32,000 nt of DNA from Nonlabens ponticola. GTDB taxonomy: Bacteria > Bacteroidota > Bacteroidia > Flavobacteriales > Flavobacteriaceae. The notes beneath the pieces were generated by a model that was given only the letters and a program-made list of their open reading frames with translations, had not been told where the DNA came from and ran no database searches. The stretch lies in contig NZ_CP034549.1 in the NCBI RefSeq assembly GCF_003966335.1, positions 1,350,001 through 1,382,000 on the forward strand, in the 5' to 3' direction. Positions within the stretch are counted from its first letter, which is position 1; the number at the start of each line of letters is the position of its first letter. Both the position numbers and the translations under genes were made by a program. Positions 956 through 32,000 of this stretch are shown one piece after another.

Positions 956-2236
956 ATGAAAACTGTCATCATTATCTCAGTTGTATTTTTTATCAGCAAC
1001 TTCACTCGAGTATCTGCATCAGTTGATTGTGATTGTAAGCAAGAGCTTAACTTTTATTATAATTCACTTAAAGAGATTGAATCTTATGAGCAAATCAAAG
1101 GATCAAACGAGCAGGAATTTGATGAGCTATATGCTGACTTGATTCATTCAATCAGTGGTAATGTGACTAGAGTTGAATGTTTTAGAAAGATTTCTCAATT
1201 ATCTGCGCTCATAAAAGATGAGCATGCGCTTCCAATCATGAAAGGTTTTCCTATCGAGAAAGGAGATAGCCTCACTAATCCTACAACGCTAGCACAGCTG
1301 CGATCTAGCGATTACTTTCAAGAATTGCCTAGAGTTTCAATGAATCTTGATTCATTGCAGACAGTACTTGAACCAAGACCTATAGATAAAGTTGAAGGAT
1401 TATATCCTTTAAAAGACATGACATTGGGAATCGTCAAAACTTCCAACAATGAATACATCTCTGTCGTCATAACTTCAGAGTCAGATCTATGGGAGCCTGG
1501 TATGATTCAAGGTTATTATACCCAATTGCCATCAGGTAATTTTCAGGTCACATTTGCGCAGTTATCTCACAAACAATGGTACACTGTGCGCAATGAGAAT
1601 TTTGCAAATGGTCGTTTTTTTATCACCAGACTCAAAAAAGAAAATTTGCCTCAATTCTATGACATTATCGATGAGAACGAGGCCAAATTTAGCTACAAGC
1701 GCATCAATAAGGATGTTGACTACCTAAGAATGGGTAGCTTCTCTCGCATGACTAATAATGTAGCACAATCTAAAGAGTTACTTGCTCAAGTAGAAGGTAA
1801 GCTAAACGGCGACCACTTAATTTTTGATTTGCGCAACAATAGCGGTGGTGCAGCTCGAGTTTCAAAGCCTTACCGCAAGCTGATCAAAAAATTTGCTAAA
1901 AACGGTAAAGTCTGGATTCTATTAAACAAATACTCGGCTAGCCAGGCAGAAATCACTGCATTAAGCTTGAAAGATCTTGACAACGTTAAATTGGTGGGAC
2001 ACAATACCTTTGGTGCATCGTCCTATGGCTCCAACTACGGCAAGGTTTCCGTTTCTCCATCGGGCAATTTTTACCACACGGTCACCGATATGAACGTTTC
2101 AGAAAACCTAGAGTATGAAGAAGTTGGTGTGCCGGTAGACATTGAGTTAGATCTACAAACAGACTGGATTGAGCAAGTTCTCAAATTGACTGCGATGCGA
2201 GATGTCGATAATGAGAGCGCTTTCGCGAAAGCGTAA
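956..2236 (+). CDS. secreted S41-family (tail-specific protease-like) peptidase
   Basis: 426-aa ORF with an N-terminal signal-like hydrophobic segment. S41-like motifs are present: IFDLRNNSGG and a downstream YSASQAEITA serine motif. The last five residues (AFAKA) and the stop codon are supplied by a copy of the iterated palindrome. Confidence 0.65.
   Translation: MKTVIIISVVFFISNFTRVSASVDCDCKQELNFYYNSLKEIESYEQIKGSNEQEFDELYADLIHSISGNVTRVECFRKISQLSALIKDEHALPIMKGFPIEKGDSLTNPTTLAQLRSSDYFQELPRVSMNLDSLQTVLEPRPIDKVEGLYPLKDMTLGIVKTSNNEYISVVITSESDLWEPGMIQGYYTQLPSGNFQVTFAQLSHKQWYTVRNENFANGRFFITRLKKENLPQFYDIIDENEAKFSYKRINKDVDYLRMGSFSRMTNNVAQSKELLAQVEGKLNGDHLIFDLRNNSGGAARVSKPYRKLIKKFAKNGKVWILLNKYSASQAEITALSLKDLDNVKLVGHNTFGASSYGSNYGKVSVSPSGNFYHTVTDMNVSENLEYEEVGVPVDIELDLQTDWIEQVLKLTAMRDVDNESAFAKA
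2218..2233. repeat. iterated palindrome copy 1 (exact CGCTTTCGCGAAAGCG)
   Basis: Read directly. It lies in the last codons of the S41-like CDS as AFAKA and is followed by TAA. Confidence 0.95.
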
Positions 2237-3011: not shown

Positions 3012-3047
3012 GCTTTCGCGCCTGCCTGCCGGTCAGGCAGGAAAGCG
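3012..3047. repeat. iterated palindrome copy 3, split by the nested palindrome CCTGCCTGCCGGTCAGGCAGG
   Basis: GCTTTCGCG + 21-nt insert + AAAGCG. Intergenic, 55 nt upstream of the E2 ATG. Confidence 0.9.
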
Positions 3048-4464: not shown

Positions 4465-4875
4465 ATGTACCAACTCATGGATTCAACACCTACTTTTCAC
4501 GTCTACATTATGACAAATAAAAAAGATGGTGCTCTATATATTGGATATACCAGCGACATTGAGTCACGAGTGATCGAACTTAAAACCAAATTGAATCCAA
4601 AATCCTTCACTGCAAAATACAATTGTGACAAGCTGGTTTATCTTGAAGAGCACCATACTCGAGCCACTGCAGAAAAACGAGAATCTCAGATGAAGAAATG
4701 GAAAAGAGAATGGAAAATAGAATTAATCGAGAAGTTAAATCCTGAATGGATGGATGTCGCGATGAATTGGTCGACTGATAGTCACATCACTTTAAAAAGT
4801 AAACGAATTAAAGCATCTATAGATTACTATAAGGACATTGGTAATCTAGATGTATGGGAAAGCACCGCATTATGA
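4465..4875 (+). CDS. GIY-YIG nuclease family protein (COG2827/UPF0213-like) with a non-conserved C-terminal tail
   Basis: 136 aa. FHVYIMTNKKDGALYIGYTSDIESRV then KLVYLEEHHTRATAEKRESQMKKWKREWKIELIE matches the small GIY-YIG family pattern. The ORF starts 1 nt after the E2 stop, and its TGA overlaps the E1 ATG (ATGA). Confidence 0.8.
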   Translation: MYQLMDSTPTFHVYIMTNKKDGALYIGYTSDIESRVIELKTKLNPKSFTAKYNCDKLVYLEEHHTRATAEKRESQMKKWKREWKIELIEKLNPEWMDVAMNWSTDSHITLKSKRIKASIDYYKDIGNLDVWESTAL

Positions 4876-6968
4876 GCAACAATCAACGAGATTCCCACTT
4901 TCGTGGGAATTTAGGAACAGCATACCGTAATCTAACCACCGCCAAAGCAATGGCCGAACTCTACGAGGAAAACTTTAAGCAGGTTTCCAAGTACGTTCAC
5001 GCCACAAGCCGCGGCCACGAGGTCATTCAGACTGCTGTAGGCATGCAGCTATTGCCACAGGATTATGCGTTTCCTTACTATAGAGACGACGCTATGCTCT
5101 TGGCTATAGGAATGAAGCCGTATGACTTGATGCTGCAATTGCTAGCAAAGAAAGCTGATCCATTTTCTGGCGGTCGTACTTATTACTCACATCCATCATT
5201 AAAGGATGATGACAAGCCTAAAATACCGCATCAATCCAGTGCTACTGGTATGCAGGCTATTCCTGCAACGGGTGTGGCAATGGGAATGTGGTACAAGGAA
5301 AGCCTCAATGAGGAACAGAAAGAGATGCTGAAACAAGTTCAGCATGACAGCAATGACGGTGTTGTCGTCTGTTCCCTAGGCGATGCGTCCGTTACCGAAG
5401 GCGAGATTGCTGAGGCCATGCAAATGGCCGCACTCAAACAGTTGCCTATTCTTTATTTGGTGCAGGATAATGGCTGGGACATTAGTGCCAATGCAGCCGA
5501 AACCAGAGCTCAGAACGCTGCCGAGTATGCGGCAGGTTTTCACGGCATCGAGGCGATTTCTATTGATGGAACTGATTTTGAGCAGAGCTACAACACGATC
5601 AATGAGGTCATAGAAAAAATCCGTAAGGAGCGCAGGCCATTTTTAGTACACGCGACCGTTCCCTTATTGAATCACCATACCAGCGGCGTGCGCATGGAAT
5701 TTTATCGCGATGATTTGGAAGAATCTCGAGAGCGCGATCCATATCCTAAAATGAGGCAATTACTTCTTGACAATGGCTTTACTGTGCAGGAACTTGATGA
5801 TTATGACGCTTTCGCGAAAGCGGAAACACAAAAAGCTCTACAACAAGCGACAGAAATGCCCGATCCAGAGCCAGCGGACTTGTTCACGCACGACTTTGCA
5901 CCAACACCAATAACTGAGGAGCGCGGCGAGCGATCGCCAGCAGGTGCAGAAAAAGTGGTGATGGTAGATTGTGCGCTATTTGCCATAGAAGAATTGATGC
6001 GTAAACACCCAGAATGTTTGCTGTACGGTCAAGACGTTGGTGGTAGATTGGGCGGCGTTTTTAGAGAGGCAGCAACGCTGGCACAGAAATTTGGTGACAA
6101 TAGAGTATTCAACACACCCATCCAGGAAGCATTTATCGTGGGTAGCACGGTAGGAATGAGCGCGGCAGGTTTGAAGCCCATCGTTGAGGTACAGTTTGCC
6201 GACTACATCTGGCCTGGTTTGAACCAATTATTTACTGAGGTTTCCAGGTCATGCTATTTAAGTAACGGTAAGTGGCCTGTATCCATGATATTGCGTGTAC
6301 CGATAGGCGCATATGGATCTGGTGGGCCATATCATTCCAGCTCTGTAGAAAGTGTGATTACCAATATTAGAGGTCTTAAAATCGCCTATCCATCCAACGG
6401 TGCCGACTTGAAAGGCTTGATGAAAGCTGCTTATTATGACCCGAATCCAGTAGTGATCTTTGAACATAAAGGATTGTACTGGTCAAAAGTCAAAGGAACC
6501 AAAGGAGCAACCAGTATCGAACCTAGCGAGGATTATGTATTGCCTTTTGGTAAGGCTTGGGTGTTGCAGGAAATCTGGAAAAAGGAAGAAGAGGAAACCT
6601 TGAGCATTATCACCTATGGAATGGGCGTGCACTGGGCCATGAACGCTACGGCAGAACTTGGTTTACAGGATAGAGTAGAAGTAGTAGACTTGAGAACGCT
6701 GCATCCGCTGGATTATGATACGGTTTTTGCCAGCGTTAAGAAATGCGGTAAATGTCTTGTAGTTACTGAAGAGCCCAGCGATAACGGATTCTCTAGAGGC
6801 CTGCAAGGTCGTATACAGGAAGAATGCTTCAAATATCTGGATGCACCAGTAATGATCATAGGTTCTGAAAATATGCCTGCTATACCACTTAATTCAGTTC
6901 TTGAAGAAACGATGATACCTAGTACTGAGAAAGTGAAAGTGAAGATTCAAGAGGTGTTGAACTATTAA
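4872..6968 (+). CDS. fused E1 alpha/beta subunit of a 2-oxoacid (branched-chain-type) dehydrogenase, thiamine-diphosphate dependent
   Basis: The ORF is open from 4854. ATG at 4872 is preferred because it overlaps the upstream stop as ATGA. The N-terminal half is E1-alpha-like (SLGDASVTEGE, YLVQDNGWDIS). The C-terminal half is transketolase-pyrimidine/E1-beta-like (NTPIQEAFIVG, VEVQFADYIWP). Confidence 0.9.
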   Translation: MSNNQRDSHFRGNLGTAYRNLTTAKAMAELYEENFKQVSKYVHATSRGHEVIQTAVGMQLLPQDYAFPYYRDDAMLLAIGMKPYDLMLQLLAKKADPFSGGRTYYSHPSLKDDDKPKIPHQSSATGMQAIPATGVAMGMWYKESLNEEQKEMLKQVQHDSNDGVVVCSLGDASVTEGEIAEAMQMAALKQLPILYLVQDNGWDISANAAETRAQNAAEYAAGFHGIEAISIDGTDFEQSYNTINEVIEKIRKERRPFLVHATVPLLNHHTSGVRMEFYRDDLEESRERDPYPKMRQLLLDNGFTVQELDDYDAFAKAETQKALQQATEMPDPEPADLFTHDFAPTPITEERGERSPAGAEKVVMVDCALFAIEELMRKHPECLLYGQDVGGRLGGVFREAATLAQKFGDNRVFNTPIQEAFIVGSTVGMSAAGLKPIVEVQFADYIWPGLNQLFTEVSRSCYLSNGKWPVSMILRVPIGAYGSGGPYHSSSVESVITNIRGLKIAYPSNGADLKGLMKAAYYDPNPVVIFEHKGLYWSKVKGTKGATSIEPSEDYVLPFGKAWVLQEIWKKEEEETLSIITYGMGVHWAMNATAELGLQDRVEVVDLRTLHPLDYDTVFASVKKCGKCLVVTEEPSDNGFSRGLQGRIQEECFKYLDAPVMIIGSENMPAIPLNSVLEETMIPSTEKVKVKIQEVLNY
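4891..4910. repeat. 8-bp-stem hairpin ATTCCCAC-TTTC-GTGGGAAT just downstream of the GIY-YIG stop
   Basis: A perfect inverted repeat, read directly. It lies in codons 7-13 of the E1 gene (DSHFRGN). There is a single copy in this window. Confidence 0.7.
5807..5822. repeat. iterated palindrome copy 4 (exact 16-mer)
   Basis: Inside the E1 alpha/beta CDS. Reads DAFAKAE. Confidence 0.95.
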
Positions 6969-8122: not shown

Positions 8123-8137
8123 CGCTTTCGCGAAAGC
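8123..8137. repeat. iterated palindrome copy 5 (CGCTTTCGCGAAAGC, left flank TTA)
   Basis: Intergenic, between the DUF5522-like stop and the DUF4136 start. Confidence 0.95.
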
Positions 8138-10868: not shown

Positions 10869-11815
10869 CTTGGAATCTAATATTTGAACCTCAAGACTCC
10901 ATCAATCAATTATTTAAAGATATTGGTGACACTCGCATCAATATAAAACGTGATGATTTATTACACCCTAGTGTATCGGGCAATAAACTGCGCAAGCTCA
11001 AATACAACCTAAGGGATTTCTTAAATTCGGATAAGAGCGCCGTGTTAACTTATGGCGGTGCGCATTCAAATCATATTGCAGCAACCGCTGCGGCAGGTCA
11101 ACTATTAGGAATACAAACAATCGGTGTTATACGAGGAGAAGAATTAGCTCATGACATCGAGAAAACCTTACAACATAATAGCACTCTCAGGCTTGCCCAT
11201 GACAAGGGTATGAAGTTGCATTTTATGGATCGTGAATCCTATAAACACAAGAATGCTCAAATAGTGCAAAACAGATTAGTAGAAGAGCATGGTAACTACT
11301 ACGACATTCCCGAAGGCGGCACAAACGATCTAGCCATAAAAGGAACCGCCCAGATCTTAACTGAAAATGATAAAAACACCTACCAAATAATTGCCGTGGC
11401 GGCTGGTACCGGTGGTACCGCAGCTGGAATTATCGAATCTAGCAGTTCTAATCAATTTGTGTTCGTTTTTAGCGCTTTGAAGGGCGATTTTCTCAAGAAG
11501 GAGATTTCAAAATATACTAGGCGCACCAATTTTGAGGTAGTGAGTGAGAATACATTTGGTGGTTATGCACGATCTAATGATGTGTTGATTAGTTATATGA
11601 ACGTTAGCTTTCGCGAAAGCGGAATTCCTCTCGATCCTATCTACACGGCAAAGATGATGTACGGTCTAGAACTGCTGATTCAGCAAGGTGTCATTAGCAG
11701 TAAAACTCGTATTTTAGCGATTCATACGGGCGGTTTACAAGGCATCAAAGATTACAATGCCATGCTGCTTAAAAAAGGTCGCATCACGATTGATTATGCA
11801 AGTGAGATTCTATAA
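10865..11815 (+). CDS. PLP-dependent 1-aminocyclopropane-1-carboxylate deaminase / D-cysteine desulfhydrase family protein
   Basis: 316 aa. GNKLRKLKYNL (candidate PLP lysine), YGGAHSNHIAATAAAG and AAGTGGTAAG are typical of this fold-type II family. Confidence 0.8.
   Translation: MTWNLIFEPQDSINQLFKDIGDTRINIKRDDLLHPSVSGNKLRKLKYNLRDFLNSDKSAVLTYGGAHSNHIAATAAAGQLLGIQTIGVIRGEELAHDIEKTLQHNSTLRLAHDKGMKLHFMDRESYKHKNAQIVQNRLVEEHGNYYDIPEGGTNDLAIKGTAQILTENDKNTYQIIAVAAGTGGTAAGIIESSSSNQFVFVFSALKGDFLKKEISKYTRRTNFEVVSENTFGGYARSNDVLISYMNVSFRESGIPLDPIYTAKMMYGLELLIQQGVISSKTRILAIHTGGLQGIKDYNAMLLKKGRITIDYASEIL
11607..11621. repeat. iterated palindrome copy 6 (GCTTTCGCGAAAGCG)
   Basis: Inside the ACC-deaminase-family CDS. 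Reads SFRES. Confidence 0.95.
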
Positions 11816-15236: not shown

Positions 15237-16928
15237 TTATAACACCTCAATAAACAAACCGTCATCGGTTTTACTGACCTTGGCGACTTTCTTGCTTGTT
15301 AGTCCTTTTACAGCCTTATCCCATTTTTTATTGGATAATCCTGATTCTGCTTTTAGGTCATTCAGGTCAGCTTTTTGATGTTTTTTGAGTCTTTCAAATA
15401 CTACTTTTTCATCCTCATTGAGCTCCACGCCAGCTTTTTTCTCTGGTCGCATTTGTGGGAAGAACAACACTTCTTGAATCGACGGATTATTGGTTAGGAA
15501 CATAATCAAGCGATCCATACCTATTCCTAGTCCTGAAGTTGGTGGCATACCATATTCCAGCGCTCTCAAGAAATCCTGATCAATAAACATAGCCTCGTCA
15601 TCACCACGATCTGCTAGTGCAGCCTGCGCTTCAAAACGCTCACGTTGATCGATAGGGTCATTCAACTCAGTATAGGCATTAGCGATTTCCTTACCGCAAA
15701 CCATGAGTTCAAAACGCTCTGTCAAATTAGGATCGTCCCTATGTGATTTACACAACGGGCTCATTTCTTTGGGATAATCTGTAATGAAAGTCGGTTGGAT
15801 AAAGTTGCCTTCGCATTTCTCACCAAAGATCTCGTCAATCAACTTGCCTTTCCCCATGGTTTCATCTACGTCGATTTGTTGCGCTTTCGCGAAAGCGTAC
15901 AACTCTTGCTCACTTTTACCCGTAATGTCAAAACCAGTGTATTTGATGATCGCATCAGTCATGGTCACACGTGGGTACGGTGCTTTCCACTCAATCTCAT
16001 GCTCACCAAAAGTACTTGTCGTCTTACCATTCACCTTTACCGCACAGTGCTCCAGCAGGTTCTCGGTAAACTCCATCATCCAGTTGTAATCCTTGTAGGC
16101 TACATAGATTTCCATCGCGGTAAATTCTGGATTGTGCGTGCGGTCCATACCTTCATTCCTGAAGTTCTTGCTGAATTCATACACACCATCAAAACCGCCC
16201 ACGATCAAACGCTTCAGGTACAACTCATTGGCAATACGCATATATAGCGGTATGTCTAGCGAGTTGTGGTGCGTGATAAAAGGTTTGGCCGCGGCGCCAC
16301 CTGGAATGGGTTGTAGGATAGGAGTTTCAACCTCAAAATACTCACGATTGTTGAAGAATGAACGCATGGCGTTGAAAAGCTTGGTGCGCTTGACAAAAAC
16401 TTCCTTCACATCTGGATTGACCACAAGATCTGCATAGCGCTGGCGATAGCGCATTTCTGGATCATTAAACTCGTCGTATGTATTTCCATCAGCATCTGTT
16501 TTAGGTAATGGCAGTGGTTTTAATGCCTTGCTCAACAACTCAAAGTTCTTGACCATGATAGTTTGCTCGCCTACCTGCGTGGTAAAAAGCTCGCCTTCAA
16601 TACCTATAAAATCACCTATGTCTAGTAATTTTTTATAGACCTCATTATATAATGTTTTATCATCATCAGGACATATCTCGTCACGATTAAAATAGACCTG
16701 GATTCTACCGGTGCTGTCCTGCAACTCTGCAAACGATGCCTTTCCTTGAATACGTCTCGACATCAATCGTCCAGCTACAATTACCTTTTTTTCTTCTTGA
16801 AAATCAGCTTTGATGGACGCCGCAGTCGCATCTACATGATATTGCGCCGCTGGATATGGATTGATTCCCATCTCACGCAATTTGTCTAGTTTATCTCTTC
16901 TTACGATTTCCTGTTCAGAAAGTGGCAT
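15237..16928 (-). CDS. lysS: lysine--tRNA ligase (class II) with Bacteroidota-type C-terminal extension
   Basis: The ORF is open to 16967. ATG at 16928 (MPLSEQEIVRRDKL) fits the LysRS N-terminus. Class II motifs: FRNEGMDRTHNPEFT, ELMVCGKEIANAYTELNDP and GLGIGMDRLIMFLT. Confidence 0.93.
   Translation of the reverse strand: MPLSEQEIVRRDKLDKLREMGINPYPAAQYHVDATAASIKADFQEEKKVIVAGRLMSRRIQGKASFAELQDSTGRIQVYFNRDEICPDDDKTLYNEVYKKLLDIGDFIGIEGELFTTQVGEQTIMVKNFELLSKALKPLPLPKTDADGNTYDEFNDPEMRYRQRYADLVVNPDVKEVFVKRTKLFNAMRSFFNNREYFEVETPILQPIPGGAAAKPFITHHNSLDIPLYMRIANELYLKRLIVGGFDGVYEFSKNFRNEGMDRTHNPEFTAMEIYVAYKDYNWMMEFTENLLEHCAVKVNGKTTSTFGEHEIEWKAPYPRVTMTDAIIKYTGFDITGKSEQELYAFAKAQQIDVDETMGKGKLIDEIFGEKCEGNFIQPTFITDYPKEMSPLCKSHRDDPNLTERFELMVCGKEIANAYTELNDPIDQRERFEAQAALADRGDDEAMFIDQDFLRALEYGMPPTSGLGIGMDRLIMFLTNNPSIQEVLFFPQMRPEKKAGVELNEDEKVVFERLKKHQKADLNDLKAESGLSNKKWDKAVKGLTSKKVAKVSKTDDGLFIEVL
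15882..15897. repeat. iterated palindrome copy 7 (exact 16-mer, right flank TA)
   Basis: Inside lysS (minus strand). Reads YAFAKA. Confidence 0.95.
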
Positions 16929-17022: not shown

Positions 17023-17037
17023 CGCTTTCGCGAAAGC
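17023..17037. repeat. iterated palindrome copy 8 (CGCTTTCGCGAAAGC)
   Basis: Intergenic, about 95 nt upstream of the lysS start. Confidence 0.95.
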
Positions 17038-18170: not shown

Positions 18171-19259
18171 ATGACATTGACACCAGAACAAATACGCGAG
18201 GCACTGACCCAGCCTGAAATGGCCGCACACCTAGCAGATCTGGTGTACATTCAAGATGAGCACCTGAGCATTCATCGCAAGAAACACGGTCGTGGTTTCA
18301 CCTATCTTATCAACAATACAGAGAGAGTTAAGGATAAAGAAGAACTCAAGCGTATCAAGTCGCTGGTAATACCGCCAGCGTGGCAAGATGTGCGTATCTC
18401 CAGTGTGGCAAACGGTCACTTGCAATCTGTAGGTCGTGATGACAAAGGCCGCAAGGTGTATAGATATCATGATTTGTGGAGTCTTCTAAGAAACCAGACA
18501 AAGTTTTTTAAGATGTCCGCTTTCGCGAAAGCGTTACCCAAAATAAGAAAGCGATTAGAAAGTGACCTAGCATTAAAAGGAATGCCTCGTGAAAAGTGTC
18601 TAGCGCTGGTAGTGACTGTTATGGATCTAACACACATACGTGTTGGCAATCAATATTATGCGCGCAAAAACAAAACTTATGGACTCTCTACCCTACGCAC
18701 TAAGCATGTAGAAGATGATGGTGACGGCGTGACCTTTAATTTTAAGGGTAAAAAGGGCGTGCAGCAATCACACACCATTACTGATGAAGAAATCGTAGAG
18801 CTAATACACCAGTGCGAGGAAATTCCGGGTTGGGAATTGTTTCAATATATCGATAAAGATGGATCGCATCATGGTATCGATAGCGGTATGATCAATGATT
18901 ATATTCATGAGGTTGCTGGTGATATTTTTAGCGCCAAGGATTTTAGAACTTGGGGCGCGACCACTACTTTTTTTGAGAAGATGCTGGAATTGCCAGTGCC
19001 AGAAACAAAGAAACAACGCGATAAAAATATGCTAGAAGGATATGATGCTGCTGCAGAAGAATTAGGAAACACACGCAATGTGTGTCGTCAATATTATGTG
19101 CATCCTGAGATTCCCAATGTGTACGAAGAGGAAGATAAATTTGAGCAGTACCGTAAAAAGGTAAAAGATTATAACGACTACAAACGCTTCACGGCAGCCG
19201 AGCGTTGCGTGCAGGAAATCATTGAGAACTTTGAGATCGAGTTCAAGCTGGAAGATTAA
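18171..19259 (+). CDS. bacterial type IB DNA topoisomerase (poxvirus-like)
   Basis: 362 aa. IPPAWQDVRIS, GRDDKGRKVYRYH, IRVGNQYYARKNKTYGLSTLR, KDFRTWGAT and the C-terminal VCRQYYVHP (catalytic Tyr context). Confidence 0.85.
   Translation: MTLTPEQIREALTQPEMAAHLADLVYIQDEHLSIHRKKHGRGFTYLINNTERVKDKEELKRIKSLVIPPAWQDVRISSVANGHLQSVGRDDKGRKVYRYHDLWSLLRNQTKFFKMSAFAKALPKIRKRLESDLALKGMPREKCLALVVTVMDLTHIRVGNQYYARKNKTYGLSTLRTKHVEDDGDGVTFNFKGKKGVQQSHTITDEEIVELIHQCEEIPGWELFQYIDKDGSHHGIDSGMINDYIHEVAGDIFSAKDFRTWGATTTFFEKMLELPVPETKKQRDKNMLEGYDAAAEELGNTRNVCRQYYVHPEIPNVYEEEDKFEQYRKKVKDYNDYKRFTAAERCVQEIIENFEIEFKLED
18518..18533. repeat. iterated palindrome copy 9 (exact 16-mer)
   Basis: Inside the topoisomerase IB CDS. 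Reads SAFAKAL. Confidence 0.95.
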
Positions 19260-21761: not shown

Positions 21762-22367
21762 TTATAATGGCAGTTCAAGTTGTTCTGGTAGTAATTTAAA
21801 GGTCATGCGGTGATAATCTGTCGTACCGTGATCGCGTATCGCTTGTCTATGTCGCATGGTTGGGTAACCCTGATTATTACACCAGTCATATTGTGGAAAT
21901 TCCTGATCTAGCTGTTGCATGAGCGCATCGCGATGTGTCTTGGCTAGTATGGATGCCGCGGCAATATGCAAATACTTACCATCGCCCTTTATGACAGTAG
22001 TATGATTGATGCCAGGATATGCTTTGAATCTGTTACCATCAACTGCAATATGTTGAGGTTCAATTTTTAATCCTTTGACGGCTTCATGCATGGCTTGAAT
22101 ACTCGCATTGAGGATATTTATTTGTTCAATCACCCGCATGTCCACATGAGCCACATGGTAGGCAATGGCCTCTTTCTCTATAATAGTTCTTAGTTGGTTT
22201 CTACGCTTTCGCGAAAGCTTCTTACTATCATTCAACGCTGCACATTTAAAATCTTGTGGTAGAATCACGGCTGCCGCAGTCACAGGGCCAGCGAGGCAAC
22301 CACGTCCAGCCTCGTCAGTACCGCACTCAATAATATCAGGATATATTTGTGGTAGGAGCATATTCAA
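21762..22367 (-). CDS. rnhB: ribonuclease HII
   Basis: 201 aa. GTDEAGRGCLAGPVTAAAVIL, LNDSKKLSRKRR, ILNASIQAMHEAV, VDGN and ASILAKTHRD match RNase HII throughout. Confidence 0.92.
   Translation of the reverse strand: MNMLLPQIYPDIIECGTDEAGRGCLAGPVTAAAVILPQDFKCAALNDSKKLSRKRRNQLRTIIEKEAIAYHVAHVDMRVIEQINILNASIQAMHEAVKGLKIEPQHIAVDGNRFKAYPGINHTTVIKGDGKYLHIAAASILAKTHRDALMQQLDQEFPQYDWCNNQGYPTMRHRQAIRDHGTTDYHRMTFKLLPEQLELPL
22204..22218. repeat. iterated palindrome copy 10 (CGCTTTCGCGAAAGC)
   Basis: Inside rnhB (minus strand). Reads KLSRKRR within the conserved DSKKLSxKRR segment. Confidence 0.95.
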
Positions 22368-25747: not shown

Positions 25748-25778
25748 GAAAGCCAACTCACTAGAGTTGGCTTTTTTT
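25748..25778 (+). terminator. intrinsic terminator after the propeller lipoprotein gene
   Basis: AGCCAACTC-ACTA-GAGTTGGCT followed by TTTTTT. Confidence 0.8.
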
Positions 25779-25812
25779 GTTGGTAATAATTTTACATTTT
25801 ATATATTTGAAC

Positions 25813-26103
25813 GTGTCTATCATCAAAAAATACGCTTCATTAGTATTACTGCTGCTCTTTCTAGGAGTGCAGGCAACTTCTTTGCACGGTTTTTCTCATG
25901 AGGATGATGACACTTCATGTGAGCTATGTCTTGTAGTTCAAAATTTTCAGGAAGAAGAGTTTACGGGTCAAGATGCGATTATAATAGCACCACCAGTAAT
26001 GATTCTTGTAAGTGTTGAGGTTGGTGATCATTACGCTTTCGCGAAAGCGGAATCCCAACCAACTTTCTACCCATCACGGCCACCGCCGTTTACCCATAGT
26101 TAG
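25813..26103 (+). CDS. small membrane/secreted protein with HxxSHEDDDxxCxxC motif
   Basis: The track ORF starts at TTG 25777, inside the upstream terminator's T-tract. In-frame GTG at 25813 gives (M)SIIKKYASLVLLLLFLGVQATS, then LHGFSHEDDDTSCELC. The start is uncertain. It contains an iterated-palindrome copy, read YAFAKA. Confidence 0.45.
   Translation: MSIIKKYASLVLLLLFLGVQATSLHGFSHEDDDTSCELCLVVQNFQEEEFTGQDAIIIAPPVMILVSVEVGDHYAFAKAESQPTFYPSRPPPFTHS
26034..26049. repeat. iterated palindrome copy 11 (exact 16-mer, left flank TTA)
   Basis: Inside the small His/Cys protein ORF. Reads YAFAKA. Confidence 0.95.
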
Positions 26104-26153: not shown

Positions 26154-28610
26154 ATGTTTTTAAAAAATATCGTGGTAATTGTCCTTTTATCGGCAATTAC
26201 CGCAACGGCTCAGGACTGTCGCATACAGTTAAAAGGTGTCGTTACTGATTTTCATGACGCAGCGCCACTAGAACTCGCTCAAGTTTACATTAAGGAAGCA
26301 GGAAAAACCGGCACCACTAATGAACTAGGTGAGTACCAGATCAAGAACCTGTGTGCAGGTGATTACACGGTTGTAGTGACCCATTTTTCTTGTGAGACAA
26401 AGACGTTGAATCTTAGTTTGAGACGTGATATGACTTATAACGTCAAGCTAGAACATCATATCAATGACTTAGAGCAAGTAGATATTCTAGCAGATGTTCA
26501 CGATAATCATGACCAGACGCAGTCTAGTACACGTGTAGATCAGGAGACCATTAATAAATATAGTGGTGCAACATTAGGCGACGCGCTCGCGACTGTGCAA
26601 GGTGTATCAGCGCTCAAGACAGGCAATAGTGTGGTAAAGCCAGTTATTCATGGTGTTTACGGTAGTAGAGTAACTATAGTAAATAATGGTTTAAGGCAAC
26701 AGGATCAGGAATGGGGTCTAGAGCATTCACCTAATATTGATGTGAACACCGCAGCAAATATTGAAGTTGTAAAAGGTGCAACGGCCTTGAGGTATGGTGG
26801 CGATGCCATTGGTGGAACGATTATTATTGAACCAGAGCGTTTCCTGGCTATGGACACCTTGAAAGGCAAACTCATAAGCCAACTGCAATCAAATGGTCGT
26901 GGTGGTAGCCTCACAGGAACTATTGGGAACTATAATAATAGTGGCTGGTACCAGCGTGTAACATTGACCGGTAAGCGATTGGGTGATTATGAAGCACCAG
27001 ATTATGTCTTGAGTAATACAGGTGAGCAAACCTTCTCAGGTAACCTCGCGGTAGGGTACCAGCAATTTGAGTACGGTGGTAGCATCAATTACTCCTATTA
27101 TAATACAGAGTTGGGAATCCTGCGTGCATCGCATATAGGTAATAGTACCAACCTTGTAAGATCTATAAACTCTGGTCAGCCTAATATTGTACGGGATTTC
27201 ACCTATGATATCGATCCACCTAAACAGCAGGTAGAACATCATGGATTACAGCTTAAAGGCTTCAAGCGTTTTGCAAATCTGGGAAAACTCGAGGTAGATT
27301 ATGCGTTTCAATTTAACAATAGGCTAGAATTTGACATACGTCGTGGTGCTAACGCTGGTCGTGCATCGCTGGATCTTGACTTGACGACACACACGCTGGC
27401 GGCATACTTACTGGTAGATTCGTTAGAAGATATAGAGTTGGAACTAGGTGTGGACGGTTTGCATCAAATCAACGAGCCTAATCCAGCTACTGGCATACGT
27501 CGATTGATACCAGATTATGATAGCCAGAAGATAGGTGGTTTTATCAGTGCCAATAAAAGATTCCATTCTAAGTGGCTTGTAGATGCTGGTGTGAGATATG
27601 ATTTATATCGTATCGCTGCACAAAAGTTTTATCAGTTATCGCGCTGGGAAGACTTGGGCTATGACGAGCAATTCCCACAATTCGAGGTGCGAGAAACAAG
27701 TACTCAGATATTGACAAATCCTGAGTTTGATTACAGCCTACTGGCTTTCAGTGCAGGTGTCAAATACTTTGTGGATGACCATTATGACTTTGCGATTAAT
27801 TTGAGTAGTGCCAGTCGAGCGCCTAATCCTAGTGAACTCTTCAGTGATGGGTTGCACCACGCACTGGCGACTATAGAATTGGGCCAGCTCGATTTAAGAA
27901 AAGAACGATCGTATAAGCTGAACTTGACGGCCCATGCTGGTAAAGGTGGTTTTAACGCCGTTGATATCGAGGTCAACCCTTATTTAAGTTTAGTAAAAGA
28001 CTACATACAATTAGTACCGATTGGGTTGGAAACGACTACAAGAGGTGCATTTCCAGTGTATCAATATGAGCAGGTAGATGCTTTGCTAGCTGGTGTCGAT
28101 GTAGGTGCCTCATGGGACATCGTTTATACTGAGCTTGTGGATCCTGAAGATCCAGATGGTAACCCAGAGCTTTTTGAATCCTTGAGACTCAACTCAAGAT
28201 TTTCTTACATCTATGGCGAGAATACAACAGACGATGAACCGCTCATACTCATACCGCCTACACAATTTTACAATGAATTGGTCTGGAGCAATGGAATTAT
28301 CGATAATCTAAGTTTTACACTGGCTAATCAATCAGTACTTACACAGACTCGATTTCCTGATGATGATTACGAAGTCAATATACCGGATGATCAGGGAAAT
28401 TTTCAAACGGTTACTGTGGAAATAAGTGAAGCACCTAGTGGTTTTTCCTTGTGGAATGCTGGTGTCAGTTACGCTTTCGCGAAAGCGCAATTAAACCTGC
28501 GCGTAAACAACTTATTGAATACCAATTATAGAAACTATCTCAACAGGCAACGCTTTTATGCAGATGACATAGGGCGTGATTTTCAATTACAATTCATCTA
28601 TAACTTTTAA
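26154..28610 (+). CDS. TonB-dependent outer-membrane receptor with N-terminal carboxypeptidase-regulatory-like domain
   Basis: 818 aa with a signal peptide. CarbopepD_reg-like segment: LKGVVTDFHDAAPLELAQVYIKE then GEYQIKNLCAGDY. Plug motifs: ATLGDALATVQGV, VIHGVYGSRV and IEVVKGATALRYGGDAIGGTI. The barrel ends with FQLQFIYNF. Confidence 0.9.
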   Translation: MFLKNIVVIVLLSAITATAQDCRIQLKGVVTDFHDAAPLELAQVYIKEAGKTGTTNELGEYQIKNLCAGDYTVVVTHFSCETKTLNLSLRRDMTYNVKLEHHINDLEQVDILADVHDNHDQTQSSTRVDQETINKYSGATLGDALATVQGVSALKTGNSVVKPVIHGVYGSRVTIVNNGLRQQDQEWGLEHSPNIDVNTAANIEVVKGATALRYGGDAIGGTIIIEPERFLAMDTLKGKLISQLQSNGRGGSLTGTIGNYNNSGWYQRVTLTGKRLGDYEAPDYVLSNTGEQTFSGNLAVGYQQFEYGGSINYSYYNTELGILRASHIGNSTNLVRSINSGQPNIVRDFTYDIDPPKQQVEHHGLQLKGFKRFANLGKLEVDYAFQFNNRLEFDIRRGANAGRASLDLDLTTHTLAAYLLVDSLEDIELELGVDGLHQINEPNPATGIRRLIPDYDSQKIGGFISANKRFHSKWLVDAGVRYDLYRIAAQKFYQLSRWEDLGYDEQFPQFEVRETSTQILTNPEFDYSLLAFSAGVKYFVDDHYDFAINLSSASRAPNPSELFSDGLHHALATIELGQLDLRKERSYKLNLTAHAGKGGFNAVDIEVNPYLSLVKDYIQLVPIGLETTTRGAFPVYQYEQVDALLAGVDVGASWDIVYTELVDPEDPDGNPELFESLRLNSRFSYIYGENTTDDEPLILIPPTQFYNELVWSNGIIDNLSFTLANQSVLTQTRFPDDDYEVNIPDDQGNFQTVTVEISEAPSGFSLWNAGVSYAFAKAQLNLRVNNLLNTNYRNYLNRQRFYADDIGRDFQLQFIYNF
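28472..28487. repeat. iterated palindrome copy 12 (exact 16-mer, left flank TTA)
   Basis: Inside the C-terminal barrel strands of the TonB-dependent receptor. Reads YAFAKA. Confidence 0.95.
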
Positions 28611-29891: not shown

Positions 29892-31442
29892 TCAATAATT
29901 CTGCGGATTCTCAATCACGTCTTGTGCGCGTTTTTTATGTGCCTTTAATTTATCGCTATCCATTTTCTTGAGATTTGACATGATCATGTTCATACGTTGG
30001 TTGTTCTCAAAATGAGATTTTTTCTCGTCTAGGAAATTCCAATACAGCGAATTGAAAGGACACGCGCCGTCCTCGCCACCTTTTTTGCTCACGCTATACT
30101 CGCAGTTCTTGCAGTAGTTGCTCATTTTATTGATGTAGCTACCGCTAGATACATAGGGCTTGGTAGCGATGATACCGCCGTCTGCAAATTGAGACATGCC
30201 GCGCACGTTGGTAATCTCTACCCATTCTACAGCATCGATATAAACACCTAGATACCACTCGTCTACATAACTAGGTTCCGTCATCGTTAGTAGTGCATAA
30301 TTTCCTGTGATCATTAATCGCTGTATGTGGTGCGCATAGGCATTATCCAGTGAATTATTGATCGACTCGCTCAGGCATTTCATTTTGGTCTCGCCAGTCC
30401 AATAGAAATCTGGCAAGTCGTTCTTGTTATCCAGCTCGTTTTTAGATTGATAATCTGGCATTTCCTTCCAGTAGATACCACGCATGAATTCACGCCAGCC
30501 TAGAATTTGTCTTACAAAACCTTCAACCTGTGAGATCTCTATATCCTTACTATCACGATAAGCCTCGATGACTTTCTCAATCACTTCTTTTGGGCTTAGA
30601 AGCTTGCTGTTCATGGTAAAACTTAAACGTGAGTGGTACAGATATTCTTCCTCAGTATGCATGGCATCTTGATAGTCGCCAAAATGCACCAGCAAATTCT
30701 CACAGAAATAATTGAGTACATCAAGCGCGTCGCTGCGCGTTACTGGCCAGTTGAAATTCTTTTCGTCAATACGGCCAAAAGTCTTCACACCTTCATCTTC
30801 TAGCAACTTTACAATGTCACTCACATCCTTCCGGAACCCTTTCTCATGAGGGATTTCTGTATCATGTTCCCACTTTTGCCTGTTGCTCTTGTCATAGTTC
30901 CAGTCGCCACCTTCAGGTTCTTTGTCGCCTTCTATAAGTATATCGTGCTTCTTGCGCATATCACGGTAGAAATATTCCATCGTCATGCGCTTCTTGCCTT
31001 CAAAAAATTTCTCTACGTCTTTCCTTTTGGTATAAAAATGCTCTGTATCATAGCCTTCCCATTCTATATCGAGCGAGTCGCATATATCCTTGAGCTGTTT
31101 GTCCAGTCGCCACTCATCGGGAGCGAGGTATTCAAACTTTTCTATATCATGTTCTTTGATCAAGTTCTTAATGTTTTTCTCAAGATCTTGCTCATTGTCC
31201 TTATGGTCTAGCTCATAATAAACGGTTTCCCAGCCACGGTCATTCATCCATTCATTGAAACCACGCATGGCAAGAAAAAACGCACAAACCTTTTGAATAT
31301 GGTGCTTGACATAGTCCGTTTCCTGGCGCATCTCTGCCATGTGGTAAATAATGTGCTCTTGATCGCCATTAAACCAGCTGTGTTTGTGGTTGAGTTGATC
31401 ACCCAGTATAAATCGCAGTGTTTTTGGTTTGCTATCGCTCAT
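29892..31442 (-). CDS. cryptochrome/photolyase family protein of the FeS-BCP / (6-4) photolyase (PhrB/CryB, COG3046) type
   Basis: 516 aa. N-terminus KTLRFILGDQL, central GWREFMRGIYW, HIQRLMITGN, and a C-terminal Cys set (YCKNCEY then GACPFNSLYWNFL) consistent with an Fe-S cluster. Confidence 0.8.
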   Translation of the reverse strand: MSDSKPKTLRFILGDQLNHKHSWFNGDQEHIIYHMAEMRQETDYVKHHIQKVCAFFLAMRGFNEWMNDRGWETVYYELDHKDNEQDLEKNIKNLIKEHDIEKFEYLAPDEWRLDKQLKDICDSLDIEWEGYDTEHFYTKRKDVEKFFEGKKRMTMEYFYRDMRKKHDILIEGDKEPEGGDWNYDKSNRQKWEHDTEIPHEKGFRKDVSDIVKLLEDEGVKTFGRIDEKNFNWPVTRSDALDVLNYFCENLLVHFGDYQDAMHTEEEYLYHSRLSFTMNSKLLSPKEVIEKVIEAYRDSKDIEISQVEGFVRQILGWREFMRGIYWKEMPDYQSKNELDNKNDLPDFYWTGETKMKCLSESINNSLDNAYAHHIQRLMITGNYALLTMTEPSYVDEWYLGVYIDAVEWVEITNVRGMSQFADGGIIATKPYVSSGSYINKMSNYCKNCEYSVSKKGGEDGACPFNSLYWNFLDEKKSHFENNQRMNMIMSNLKKMDSDKLKAHKKRAQDVIENPQNY

Positions 31443-31602: not shown

Positions 31603-31637
31603 CGCTTTCCTGCCTGCCGGCAGGCAGGCGCGAAAGC
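31603..31637. repeat. iterated palindrome copy 13, split by the nested perfect palindrome CCTGCCTGCCGGCAGGCAGG
   Basis: CGCTTT + 20-nt insert + CGCGAAAGC. Intergenic, 8 nt downstream of the cry-DASH stop. It is the reverse complement of copy 3 except for one extra T in copy 3. Confidence 0.9.
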
Positions 31638-31644
31638 AAAATTA

Positions 31645-32000
31645 TTACTCACTTAACCACAAGTCACGATATTCATGGTCGCCATCATAGCGATCTGCCT
31701 GCGATTGAATGTTGAAGGTGCGATTTCTAGGATCGTTGCCCACGCCGCTGTTGTACATCCAGTTACCGTAGTTGCTGTGTACGTCATAGTCAATGAGAAT
31801 GTGTTCAAAATAGGCAGCGCCTATACGCCAATCCTGCTCGCGATGCATAGACCAATAGCTGGCTACATTTTGACGGCCACGGTTACTCATGAATCCAGTG
31901 GCGGCGATCTCCTTCATGTTTGCATTGACAAAATTCTCATGCGTCTCGCCTTGCATCCATTTCTTGAGTTCTTTATCGTTAGCCTTCCAATCATAATCTT
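31645..32000 (-). CDS. DASH-type cryptochrome, C-terminal part (gene continues beyond the window)
   Basis: The reading frame is open to the window edge: DYDWKANDKELKKW precedes the track's Met. MKEIAATGFMSNRGRQNVASYW and NYGNWMYNSGVGNDPR are photolyase/cry-DASH FAD-domain motifs. Confidence 0.8.
   Translation of the reverse strand, partial: DYDWKANDKELKKWMQGETHENFVNANMKEIAATGFMSNRGRQNVASYWSMHREQDWRIGAAYFEHILIDYDVHSNYGNWMYNSGVGNDPRNRTFNIQSQADRYDGDHEYRDLWLSE

Follow-up and report, generated by a model that had tools for sequence, protein, structure and literature searches.

Highly iterated palindromes are, to our knowledge, known in detail from cyanobacteria only, and about 30 years of work on the cyanobacterial word HIP1 (highly iterated palindrome 1, GCGATCGC) have left its purpose unsettled. 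HIP1 is an exact palindrome of 8 bp that is hugely over-represented in both coding and non-coding DNA, with up to one copy per gene. It has spread by nucleotide substitution and not by insertion, according to Robinson et al. 1997 as cited in PMC4390886. Its copies are conserved both inside open reading frames (ORFs) and in the DNA between them and are periodically spaced, and a nucleoid role has been proposed for it (PMC5861425). Here we describe the 14-base palindrome GCTTTCGCGAAAGC (the word) in a 32-kb window from Nonlabens ponticola (Flavobacteriaceae, Bacteroidota; NZ_CP034549.1, positions 1,350,001 to 1,382,000), the window being the whole stretch of DNA that was analysed. Judged from its sequence pattern, the word behaves as a highly iterated palindrome of the HIP1 kind. 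Its evolution can be described with good confidence as an origin by substitution, maintenance at the DNA level, restriction to Nonlabens within the sampled lineages, repulsion between copies and reading frames shaped by opportunity.

The window contains 10 exact copies of the word and one copy with a single mismatch (at 2505). Two additional intergenic copies are interrupted by a GC-rich palindrome of 20-21 nt (3012-3046 and 31604-31637). With up to two mismatches allowed, 0.17 matches were expected by chance and 11 were observed, a number that was reached in none of 100 dinucleotide-preserving shuffles. Eight of the 10 exact copies lie inside ORFs and two are intergenic (8124 and 17024). The sites in the window are listed below.

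2219-2232: exact copy in the S41 peptidase gene (956-2236, plus strand), giving its last five codons, AFAKA-stop
2505-2518: one-mismatch copy GCTTTCGTGAAAGC in the PaaY/CaiE-like hexapeptide gene, RFRES frame
3012-3046: composite intergenic copy between the hexapeptide and E2 genes, GCTTTCGCG + CCTGCCTGCCGGTCAGGCAGG + AAAGC; fold as single-stranded DNA, -12.9 kcal/mol
5808-5821: exact copy, AFAKA frame, in the gene of the fused E1 dehydrogenase; gap-free against its one outgroup
8124-8137: exact copy, intergenic; lies 25 nt upstream of a minus-strand DUF4136 gene start
11607-11620: exact copy in the gene of a pyridoxal phosphate (PLP)-dependent enzyme, SFRES frame; same site in N. ulvanivorans, RFRES; 18 outgroups gap-free
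15883-15896: exact copy in the lysyl-tRNA synthetase (LysRS) gene, minus strand, AFAKA frame; same codons in N. agnitus, YIK11, N. marinus and N. ulvanivorans
17024-17037: exact intergenic copy upstream of LysRS
18519-18532: exact copy, AFAKA frame, in the gene of topoisomerase IB; AFGKV without a gap in outgroups
22205-22218: exact copy in rnhB, the RNase HII gene (21762-22361, minus strand), K-LSRK-R frame
26035-26048: exact copy in a 108-aa ORF (25777-26103, plus strand), AFAKA frame
28473-28486: exact copy, AFAKA frame, in the gene of the TonB-dependent receptor; located in a turn of variable length that precedes the last strand
31604-31637: composite intergenic copy in mirror orientation, GCTTT + CCTGCCTGCCGGCAGGCAGG + CGCGAAAGC; fold as single-stranded DNA, -14.2 kcal/mol

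The product of rnhB matches Pfam RNase_HII (E = 8e-43) and shows 100% identity to the N. ponticola enzyme, and its start is an ATG two codons downstream of a TTG. The minus-strand codons at 22205-22218 are AAG CTT TCG CGA AAG CGT AGA and encode K-L-S-R-K-R-R. A preliminary description of the window had counted six copies translated as AFAKA, two as (R/S)FRES and one as LSRKR. Our tally was the same, with AFAKA at 2219, 5808, 15883, 18519, 26035 and 28473, (R/S)FRES at 11607 and 2505, and LSRKR at 22205; only 11607 is exact among the two (R/S)FRES copies, 2505 being the one-mismatch form. RNase HII, the PaaY/CaiE-like hexapeptide protein, topoisomerase IB, LysRS and the TonB-dependent receptor had been named correctly as hosts, and the S41 peptidase, the fused E1 dehydrogenase, the PLP enzyme and the 108-aa ORF are further hosts. 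At the hexapeptide-gene site N. marinus reads RFKES (CGC TTT AAA GAG AGC), which is not the word.

The preliminary description had also proposed that the word was written into existing codons by substitution and was not inserted. Codon alignments against relatives from outside the genus (outgroups) bore this out. They were gap-free at every tested site but the receptor, and no clean insertion of 5-6 codons was found at the tested coding sites. At rnhB, 27 informative outgroup genes showed no gap and the change was from LSEKKR to LSRKRR, in codons from G CTT TCA GAA AAA AAA-type to G CTT TCG CGA AAG CGN. This replacement includes a change from Glu to Arg in the conserved DSKxLSEKxR segment. The E. 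coli segment to which the site had first been compared is DSKKLSEKRR, and the flavobacterial outgroups served as the actual test. For LysRS, 80 outgroups aligned without a gap and xAAKx or DFAKS became AFAKA. For topoisomerase IB, 120 homologues (about 77 of them outgroups) aligned without a gap, the outgroups reading (A/S)FGK(V/M) and Nonlabens AFAKA. There was no gap at the word in 18 outgroups of the PLP enzyme, and the only outgroup of the E1 dehydrogenase was aligned gap-free. Gain or loss within the genus was seen in the DPRP gene, where N. agnitus has SRFRES and the window EAYRDS, with no insertion or deletion in the word.

The receptor site had likewise been described as having no obvious extra residues. 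The alleles that bear the motif (YAFAKA) have the shortest turn; motif-free homologues exceed them by 4-8 residues, contrary to what an insertion would give. In this turn N. ulvanivorans reads YSFFSKKNPKVKRS, with 8 additional residues. Most outgroups have 4 more, and one outgroup lacks the word and is equal in length to the motif-bearing alleles. Over all, each coding copy cost 2-4 amino-acid replacements together with synonymous changes and no change of length. No residues were added at any tested site, and we agree with the earlier argument against an insertion of the type of the Rickettsia palindromic elements (RPEs). These results show an origin of the coding copies through point substitution, step by step, at ordinary codons.

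Two other parts of the earlier proposal stood only partly. It had placed the word in conserved codons, which is right for rnhB and topoisomerase IB, whereas the LysRS, PLP enzyme, E1 and receptor sites lie in variable stretches. It had also assumed sites that already nearly matched the word. The median number of outgroup mismatches to the word at the orthologous 14 bases was 7 for LysRS, 8 for rnhB and 10 for the PLP enzyme, and the frame-matched background means were 10.3-10.9. The LysRS and rnhB sites are among the closest 7% of positions, whereas the PLP site is ordinary. Since the ancestral sites were only partly near-matching, a sustained directional force is needed. The idea of recurrent conversion was not borne out: every site tested had a single origin close to the base of the genus and was kept afterwards.

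The word is conserved between species as DNA. The rnhB copy is present at the same codons in all eight Nonlabens sources (7 genomes and one metagenome scaffold). The same codons carry the word in 5/5 genomes for LysRS, 5/6 for topoisomerase IB, 4/5 for the receptor and 2/2 for the PLP enzyme. The copy in the 108-aa ORF is conserved in the four genomes that could be aligned; a 78-aa counterpart ORF in N. ulvanivorans has a copy as well and did not align. A comparison at a thiolase site (L084 versus L205) was left unused, the two genes looking paralogous. The host proteins are just 40-91% identical between species. We counted the degenerate codons of invariant residues that were identical in all species. 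These made up 24 of 25 inside the word versus 338 of 1200 (28%) outside it in the same genes, and the sole exception was the last rnhB codon, of which the word covers the first base only. Nucleotide identity to the window was 1.00 over the word and dropped to 0.5-0.8 within a few codons. Where N. ulvanivorans topoisomerase IB lacks the word, AFAKV is encoded by GCT TTT GCA AAG GTG, with 4 mismatches, so the peptide alone does not fix the codons. Conservation of sites between genomes therefore exceeds protein constraint and is positional in six genes, as expected of the HIP class. On this comparison, a copy once formed stays letter-perfect at the DNA level through the history of the genus.

The 108-aa ORF is just 40-44% identical across species, and the stretch that is conserved best in it, YAFAKA(E/D), coincides with the palindrome. 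YAFAKA in this ORF is a DNA signal that mimics a conserved peptide motif.

The word has a sharp phylogenetic boundary, being present in every sampled Nonlabens genome and absent from the other sampled Flavobacteriales loci. The syntenic loci of N. agnitus, YIK11, N. marinus, N. spongiae, N. ulvanivorans and a metagenome-assembled genome contain 4-9 exact copies per 20 kb. No copy was found in 1.46 Mb from 80 LysRS loci of other Flavobacteriales (relatives at most 80% identical, with no Nonlabens among them), and these loci contained no other hyper-abundant palindrome. The sister genus Gangjinia had no exact copy in 13.8 kb. The peptide signature LSRK (mostly LSRKRR) occupies the rnhB site in about 80 of the 86 nearest RNase HII clusters, and the named ones are all Nonlabens. 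Among the next 34 homologues LSRK occurs in one, and the remainder have LSEKKR, LTEKQR and similar sequences. The signature is confined mostly to the nearest homologues, so the rnhB copy dates to about the base of the genus. In the literature library that was searched, no paper contains the 14-mer or its 12-mers, and none links Nonlabens or flavobacteria with abundant palindromes.

One one-off copy was seen in Gangjinia marincola (L204:12820-12833), where TAC GCTTTCGCGGAAGC GCT lies in a coding frame and is well above chance. The same variant recurs in YIK11 (L083:18979).

Metagenome contigs were scanned for the 16-mer, which gave 120 loci. Of these, 104 have 31-46% G+C, and their 674 kb contain the 14-mer 171 times. 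Among the copies counted in 788 kb of Nonlabens-type DNA, 206 were exact, 20 had one mismatch, 22 had two and 37 had three; the exact count is inflated by the choice of metagenome loci for carrying the word. The three-mismatch count is about the background level of outgroups. All sampled Nonlabens genomes have about 1 copy per 3 kb. A short exact palindrome is thus orders of magnitude over-represented in coding and non-coding DNA, which again is the pattern of the HIP class. After clustering of orthologous sites, about 68% of the distinct sites in the metagenome loci fell within ORFs of at least 100 codons and about 32% outside, the latter share being rough and inflated by contig ends. This is about three times the intergenic fraction expected in such genomes by our own estimate. 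The word is enriched in intergenic DNA.

Palindromy reaches weakly past 14 bp. Positions -1/+1 are C/G in most copies, and the 92% C at position -1 is inflated since this position belonged to the search pattern for most metagenome loci. The word can be described as a core of 14-16 bp with weak symmetric T/A-rich flanks of up to about 10 bp on each side. In all frames the 5' side is T-rich and the 3' side A-rich, and C is depleted out to about 10 bp. The extended form of the intergenic copies approximates AATTC-GCTTTCGCGAAAGC-GAATT.

The bias to the AFAKA frame that had been noticed in the window is real. Tabulation over the pooled metagenome loci, after clustering of orthologous sites, gave 68 AFAKA, 33 xFRES and 25 LSRK among 126 distinct coding sites (chi-square about 25 against equal thirds, by our arithmetic). 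The split was 36/16/19 after the index copy of each locus was removed, and 9/3/3 distinct coding sites in the genome loci alone. A null was taken from 380,799 codons of long ORFs in the 80 motif-free Flavobacteriales loci, in which near-matches with 3-5 mismatches were distributed over the three frames as 61-64%, 22-24% and 12-17%. The observed distribution equals this near-match null (about 62/22/16), so no selection at the peptide level is needed. A null from amino-acid composition predicts 21/29/50, the opposite of what was observed, and a peptide-level explanation of the bias was rejected. The series GCN, TTC, GCG, AAA, GCN suits the usual purine-first codon pattern. Most coding copies formed in the frame in which ordinary codons are already similar to the word. 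The AFAKA bias is what point substitution on ordinary coding sequence is expected to give, and this supports the substitution model.

Copies repel one another at short range (about 1.5 kb) and are rarely less than 1 kb apart. In the window the intervals between copies are 1.1-4.3 kb, with a coefficient of variation of 0.36 (P = 0.002 versus random placement). Low coefficients were also found in N. agnitus (P = 0.011), N. marinus (P = 0.038) and N. spongiae (P = 0.009), and these loci and the window share some sites. In the metagenome loci, 1.5% of the intervals were below 500 bp (15% expected), 9% below 1 kb (29% expected) and 13% below 1.5 kb (40% expected). For these 67 intervals from 42 loci, none of 5000 simulations was equally extreme (P < 2e-4).

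Insertion does occur, but within the word itself, at intergenic sites. Five such copies are interrupted by CCTGCCTGCCGGCAGGCAGG or a close variant of it. They are the two in the window (3012-3046 and 31604-31637), two in N. agnitus (L082:16880-16914 and L082:20094-20127) and one in YIK11 (L083:about 15770). The position of the insert is fixed at the G9/A10 bond (GCTTTCGCG^AAAGC) or its mirror (GCTTT^CGCGAAAGC). At the place of window copy 17024, which is simple, N. marinus (15292) is also simple and N. agnitus and YIK11 are composite. At N. agnitus 20094 the copy is composite; in YIK11, which is about 95% identical, a simple one-off copy, GCTTTCGCGGAAGC, aligns to it. The composite at window 3012 pairs with a simple copy in N. 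marinus (L084:2174) by gene order only, the flanks being unalignable. Outside the word, the insert CCTGCCTGCCGGCAGGCAGG was not seen in the Nonlabens genome loci or the 104 metagenome loci. No composite copies were found in the metagenome loci, where the search pattern gave just trivial overlaps with simple copies.

As single-stranded DNA the composite copies fold with -13 to -14 kcal/mol, and the simple copy with -2.9 kcal/mol (z = -0.6). Shuffled sequences are as stable as the simple copy, and hairpin stability as the selected property was rejected. Its weak fold favours recognition of the sequence over recognition of a structure. No Rfam family matched anywhere in the window.

Phage DNA was also compared. 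The virulent Nonlabens (Persicivirga) phage P12024S (JQ823122; 35.7 kb) has no copy within 2 mismatches, where the density in the host would predict about 10. In IMG/VR, 109 of 118 loci with matches were single and chance-like, with a median G+C of 55%. The word may accumulate only in resident DNA. A few low-GC siphovirus-like IMG/VR contigs (L138, L174, L199, L202 and L107) have 2-3 copies per 11-15 kb. Low-GC viral contigs with the word carry portal, capsid, terminase and tape-measure genes, and one copy lies within a head-protease gene.

Avoidance of the core as a restriction site was rejected, as TCGCGA outside the word was seen 32 times versus 18 expected and CGCG was likewise not depleted. 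A different word, TTCGAA, is about 7-fold depleted, with 6 seen versus 44.6 expected in 135 kb (the window and loci L082, L084, L085, L205 and L327); in the outgroups 360 were seen versus 497 expected. This depletion suggests a putative TTCGAA-specific restriction system across the genus. The core TTCGCGAA is a filled-in TTCGAA site, which may be coincidence.

Some neighbouring genes of the window deserve mention. A 136-aa GIY-YIG domain protein is encoded between the E2 and E1 dehydrogenase genes (4465-4875, plus strand), with a 22-nt overlap with the E1 start. N. marinus has a GIY-YIG remnant elsewhere (L084:4294-4488), and the 136-aa gene may be a mobile nuclease gene. NCBIfam gave no family match for the GIY-YIG protein or for five unannotated ORFs. 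A photolyase FAD-binding fragment (31645-31956, minus strand) reaches the window edge and adjoins the photolyase-related DPRP gene (29892-31442, minus strand). The composite palindrome at 31604-31637 lies 8 nt past the stop codon of this fragment.

The likeness of the word to HIP1 has its limits. It is not HIP1 proper, since its letters are GCTTTCGCGAAAGC and not GCGATCGC and its host is a member of the Flavobacteriaceae, not a cyanobacterium. HIP1 has 8 bp and up to one copy per gene, whereas the Nonlabens word has 14-16 bp and about one copy per 3 kb. HIP1 shows a periodicity of 10-90 kb, whereas the Nonlabens word shows short-range repulsion. Cognate orphan methyltransferases exist for sub-sequences of HIP1, and none was identified for the Nonlabens word in the loci examined. 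The word further differs in its phylum, Bacteroidota, and in the 20-nt internal palindromic insert of intergenic copies. Repetitive extragenic palindromic (REP) sequences and bacterial interspersed mosaic elements (BIMEs) were also considered, as the composite intergenic copies are similarly GC-rich imperfect palindromes of 34-35 nt in short spacers. This class was rejected: REPs are intergenic only and associated with RAYT transposases, whereas genes contain about two thirds of the Nonlabens copies, and the hairpin of the simple copy is weak.

The DNA uptake sequences (DUS) of Neisseria and the uptake signal sequences (USS) of Pasteurellaceae are a second point of comparison. Like the Nonlabens word, they are lineage-specific and dense, show a frame bias, alter peptides and originate by point mutation. 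They also have an AT-rich extended flank round an invariant core, even spacing and enrichment between genes. USS and DUS are biased in their reading frame, and genes acquired recently lack them (PMC2817400). USS tend to sit at residues of low conservation, whereas conserved positions were overwritten by the copies in rnhB and topoisomerase IB. DUS and USS are defined by biased uptake, and we claim no membership for the Nonlabens word, whose likeness to them is one of sequence pattern. In the same order, Riemerella columbina prefers its own DNA in natural transformation (PMC7965970).

We infer that a symmetric and sequence-specific factor, probably a homodimer, would read the word in duplex DNA, and that a strong directional force at each site, enough to fix non-synonymous changes, would maintain it. 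By analogy with the DUS of Neisseria and the USS of Pasteurellaceae, a self-DNA recognition signal seems the most likely reading, and we propose it tentatively. DNA that bears the word would be preferentially taken up or recombined, by which the word would spread and be repaired through biased replacement. Such a drive needs no benefit at each site and explains the redundancy of a nearby second copy, and for these reasons an uptake-type signal was ranked first. Several points weigh against it. Known uptake sequences are asymmetric and have 9-12 bp, whereas the Nonlabens word is palindromic and longer. We know of no competence in Nonlabens, and in the Nonlabens loci examined we identified no protein that reads the word, no methyltransferase and no competence system. 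The siphovirus-like contigs carry 1 copy per 5-13 kb, which is poorly predicted by a slow drive on resident chromosomal DNA. The composite copies separate the half-sites by 20 bp, which should break a dimer site of fixed spacing yet preserve a hairpin, and they are the strongest hint against a simple site of this type. The statistics of spacing and conservation come from about 135 kb of genome loci and 674 kb of metagenome loci selected by the 16-mer, not from whole genomes.

The spacing and the symmetry also fit a site bound by a protein that organises the nucleoid or acts in segregation, as ParB (at parS), Noc and SlmA do, with selection through chromosome architecture and not through DNA uptake. 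The word is a perfect palindrome with a symmetric extended footprint, its copies are regularly spaced, and sites are conserved between species as reported for HIP1 (PMC5861425). Against this, selection at each site must override a conserved Glu in RNase HII, the composite copies hold the half-sites 20 bp apart, and known sites number tens per genome, not about a thousand. Sites of the parS type have the 16-bp consensus TGTTNCACGTGAAACA and tens of copies near the origin. The word has 3/7 identical bases per half-site with this consensus, and about 1 copy per 3 kb is too dense, so parS/Noc sites proper were rejected. A nucleoid site in the wider sense is a serious but unlikely contender. A methylation-linked word, as proposed for HIP1, seems quite unlikely. 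A neutral bias of mutation or repair (for example of a methyltransferase-linked very-short-patch type) would convert near-matches to a word without function. The 10:1 ratio of exact to one-off copies, the frame distribution equal to that of near-matches, the CpG-rich core (CGCG/TCGCGA, a typical methylation target) and the CpG transitions among some one-off variants speak for such a bias. Repulsion within about 1.5 kb is not predicted by purely local repair, and three-mismatch near-matches are at the outgroup background level. Outgroup sites are 6-10 mismatches off, transversions included, for which patch repair at a single methylated base is insufficient. Because copies keep apart, the ancestral sites were far from the word and the virulent phage is free of copies and near-copies, we regard the neutral bias as improbable. 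A hairpin-based element seems improbable to the same degree. Selection on the peptide or on an RNA hairpin in the transcript is more improbable still. AFAKA is the commonest translation, a palindrome yields the same RNA from either transcribed strand, and composite intergenic copies form the stable hairpins given above. Nevertheless, all three frames are used, about a third of the copies are non-coding, and the conserved feature is synonymous third positions; N. ulvanivorans encodes AFAKV by other codons where the word is absent. Besides the weak hairpin of the simple copy and the lack of an Rfam match in the window, the sequence is invariant and does not change in compensating pairs. A small mobile palindromic element that inserts in-frame, like the RPEs or miniature inverted-repeat transposable elements (MITEs), is highly improbable. 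RPEs likewise are palindromic repeats inside intact protein genes. They are insertions of 100-150 bp that add residues, whereas the Nonlabens element has 14-24 bp, adds none and has no terminal repeats or target duplications. The 20-nt insert is polymorphic at a fixed position of the word, with two orthologous pairs of simple and composite copies and a third by gene order, and the receptor site lies in a length-variable turn, both of which would suit a mobile element. At the word itself there is no gap in rnhB, LysRS, the PLP enzyme, topoisomerase IB, E1 or DPRP, and the motif-bearing receptor alleles are shorter, not longer. The RPE/MITE-like class was rejected in addition because conservation is limited to 14-16 bp with weak flanks and does not extend over at least 100 bp with terminal inverted repeats.

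Returning to the self-DNA signal, a wider conjecture, which we consider doubtful on balance, is that the word would belong to an undescribed self-DNA system of Bacteroidota. It would be either the first palindromic uptake or recombination signal outside Proteobacteria or a new chromosome-marking system. The force behind it would overwrite conserved residues of catalytic domains, and in intergenic DNA a further activity would place a defined 20-nt palindrome into a single phosphodiester bond of the word.

The class of phenomenon is known; the phylum and the length of the word are new, as are the replacement of conserved residues and the 20-nt insert inside the word. The Nonlabens word provides an independent case of a highly iterated palindrome in a phylum other than cyanobacteria. 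It is a cleaner case than HIP1 because chance copies of a 14-16 bp word are negligible. Its sharp phylogenetic boundary makes a comparison of gene presence and absence usable to seek the reader. Our results indicate that a signal at the DNA level can fix 2-4 amino-acid replacements in housekeeping enzymes, such as Glu to Arg in RNase HII. This yields a spurious "conserved peptide", which might be taken for a protein motif in annotation. If the word does serve in uptake or self-recognition, it would be the first such signal in Bacteroidota and would be useful for the genetic manipulation of marine flavobacteria.

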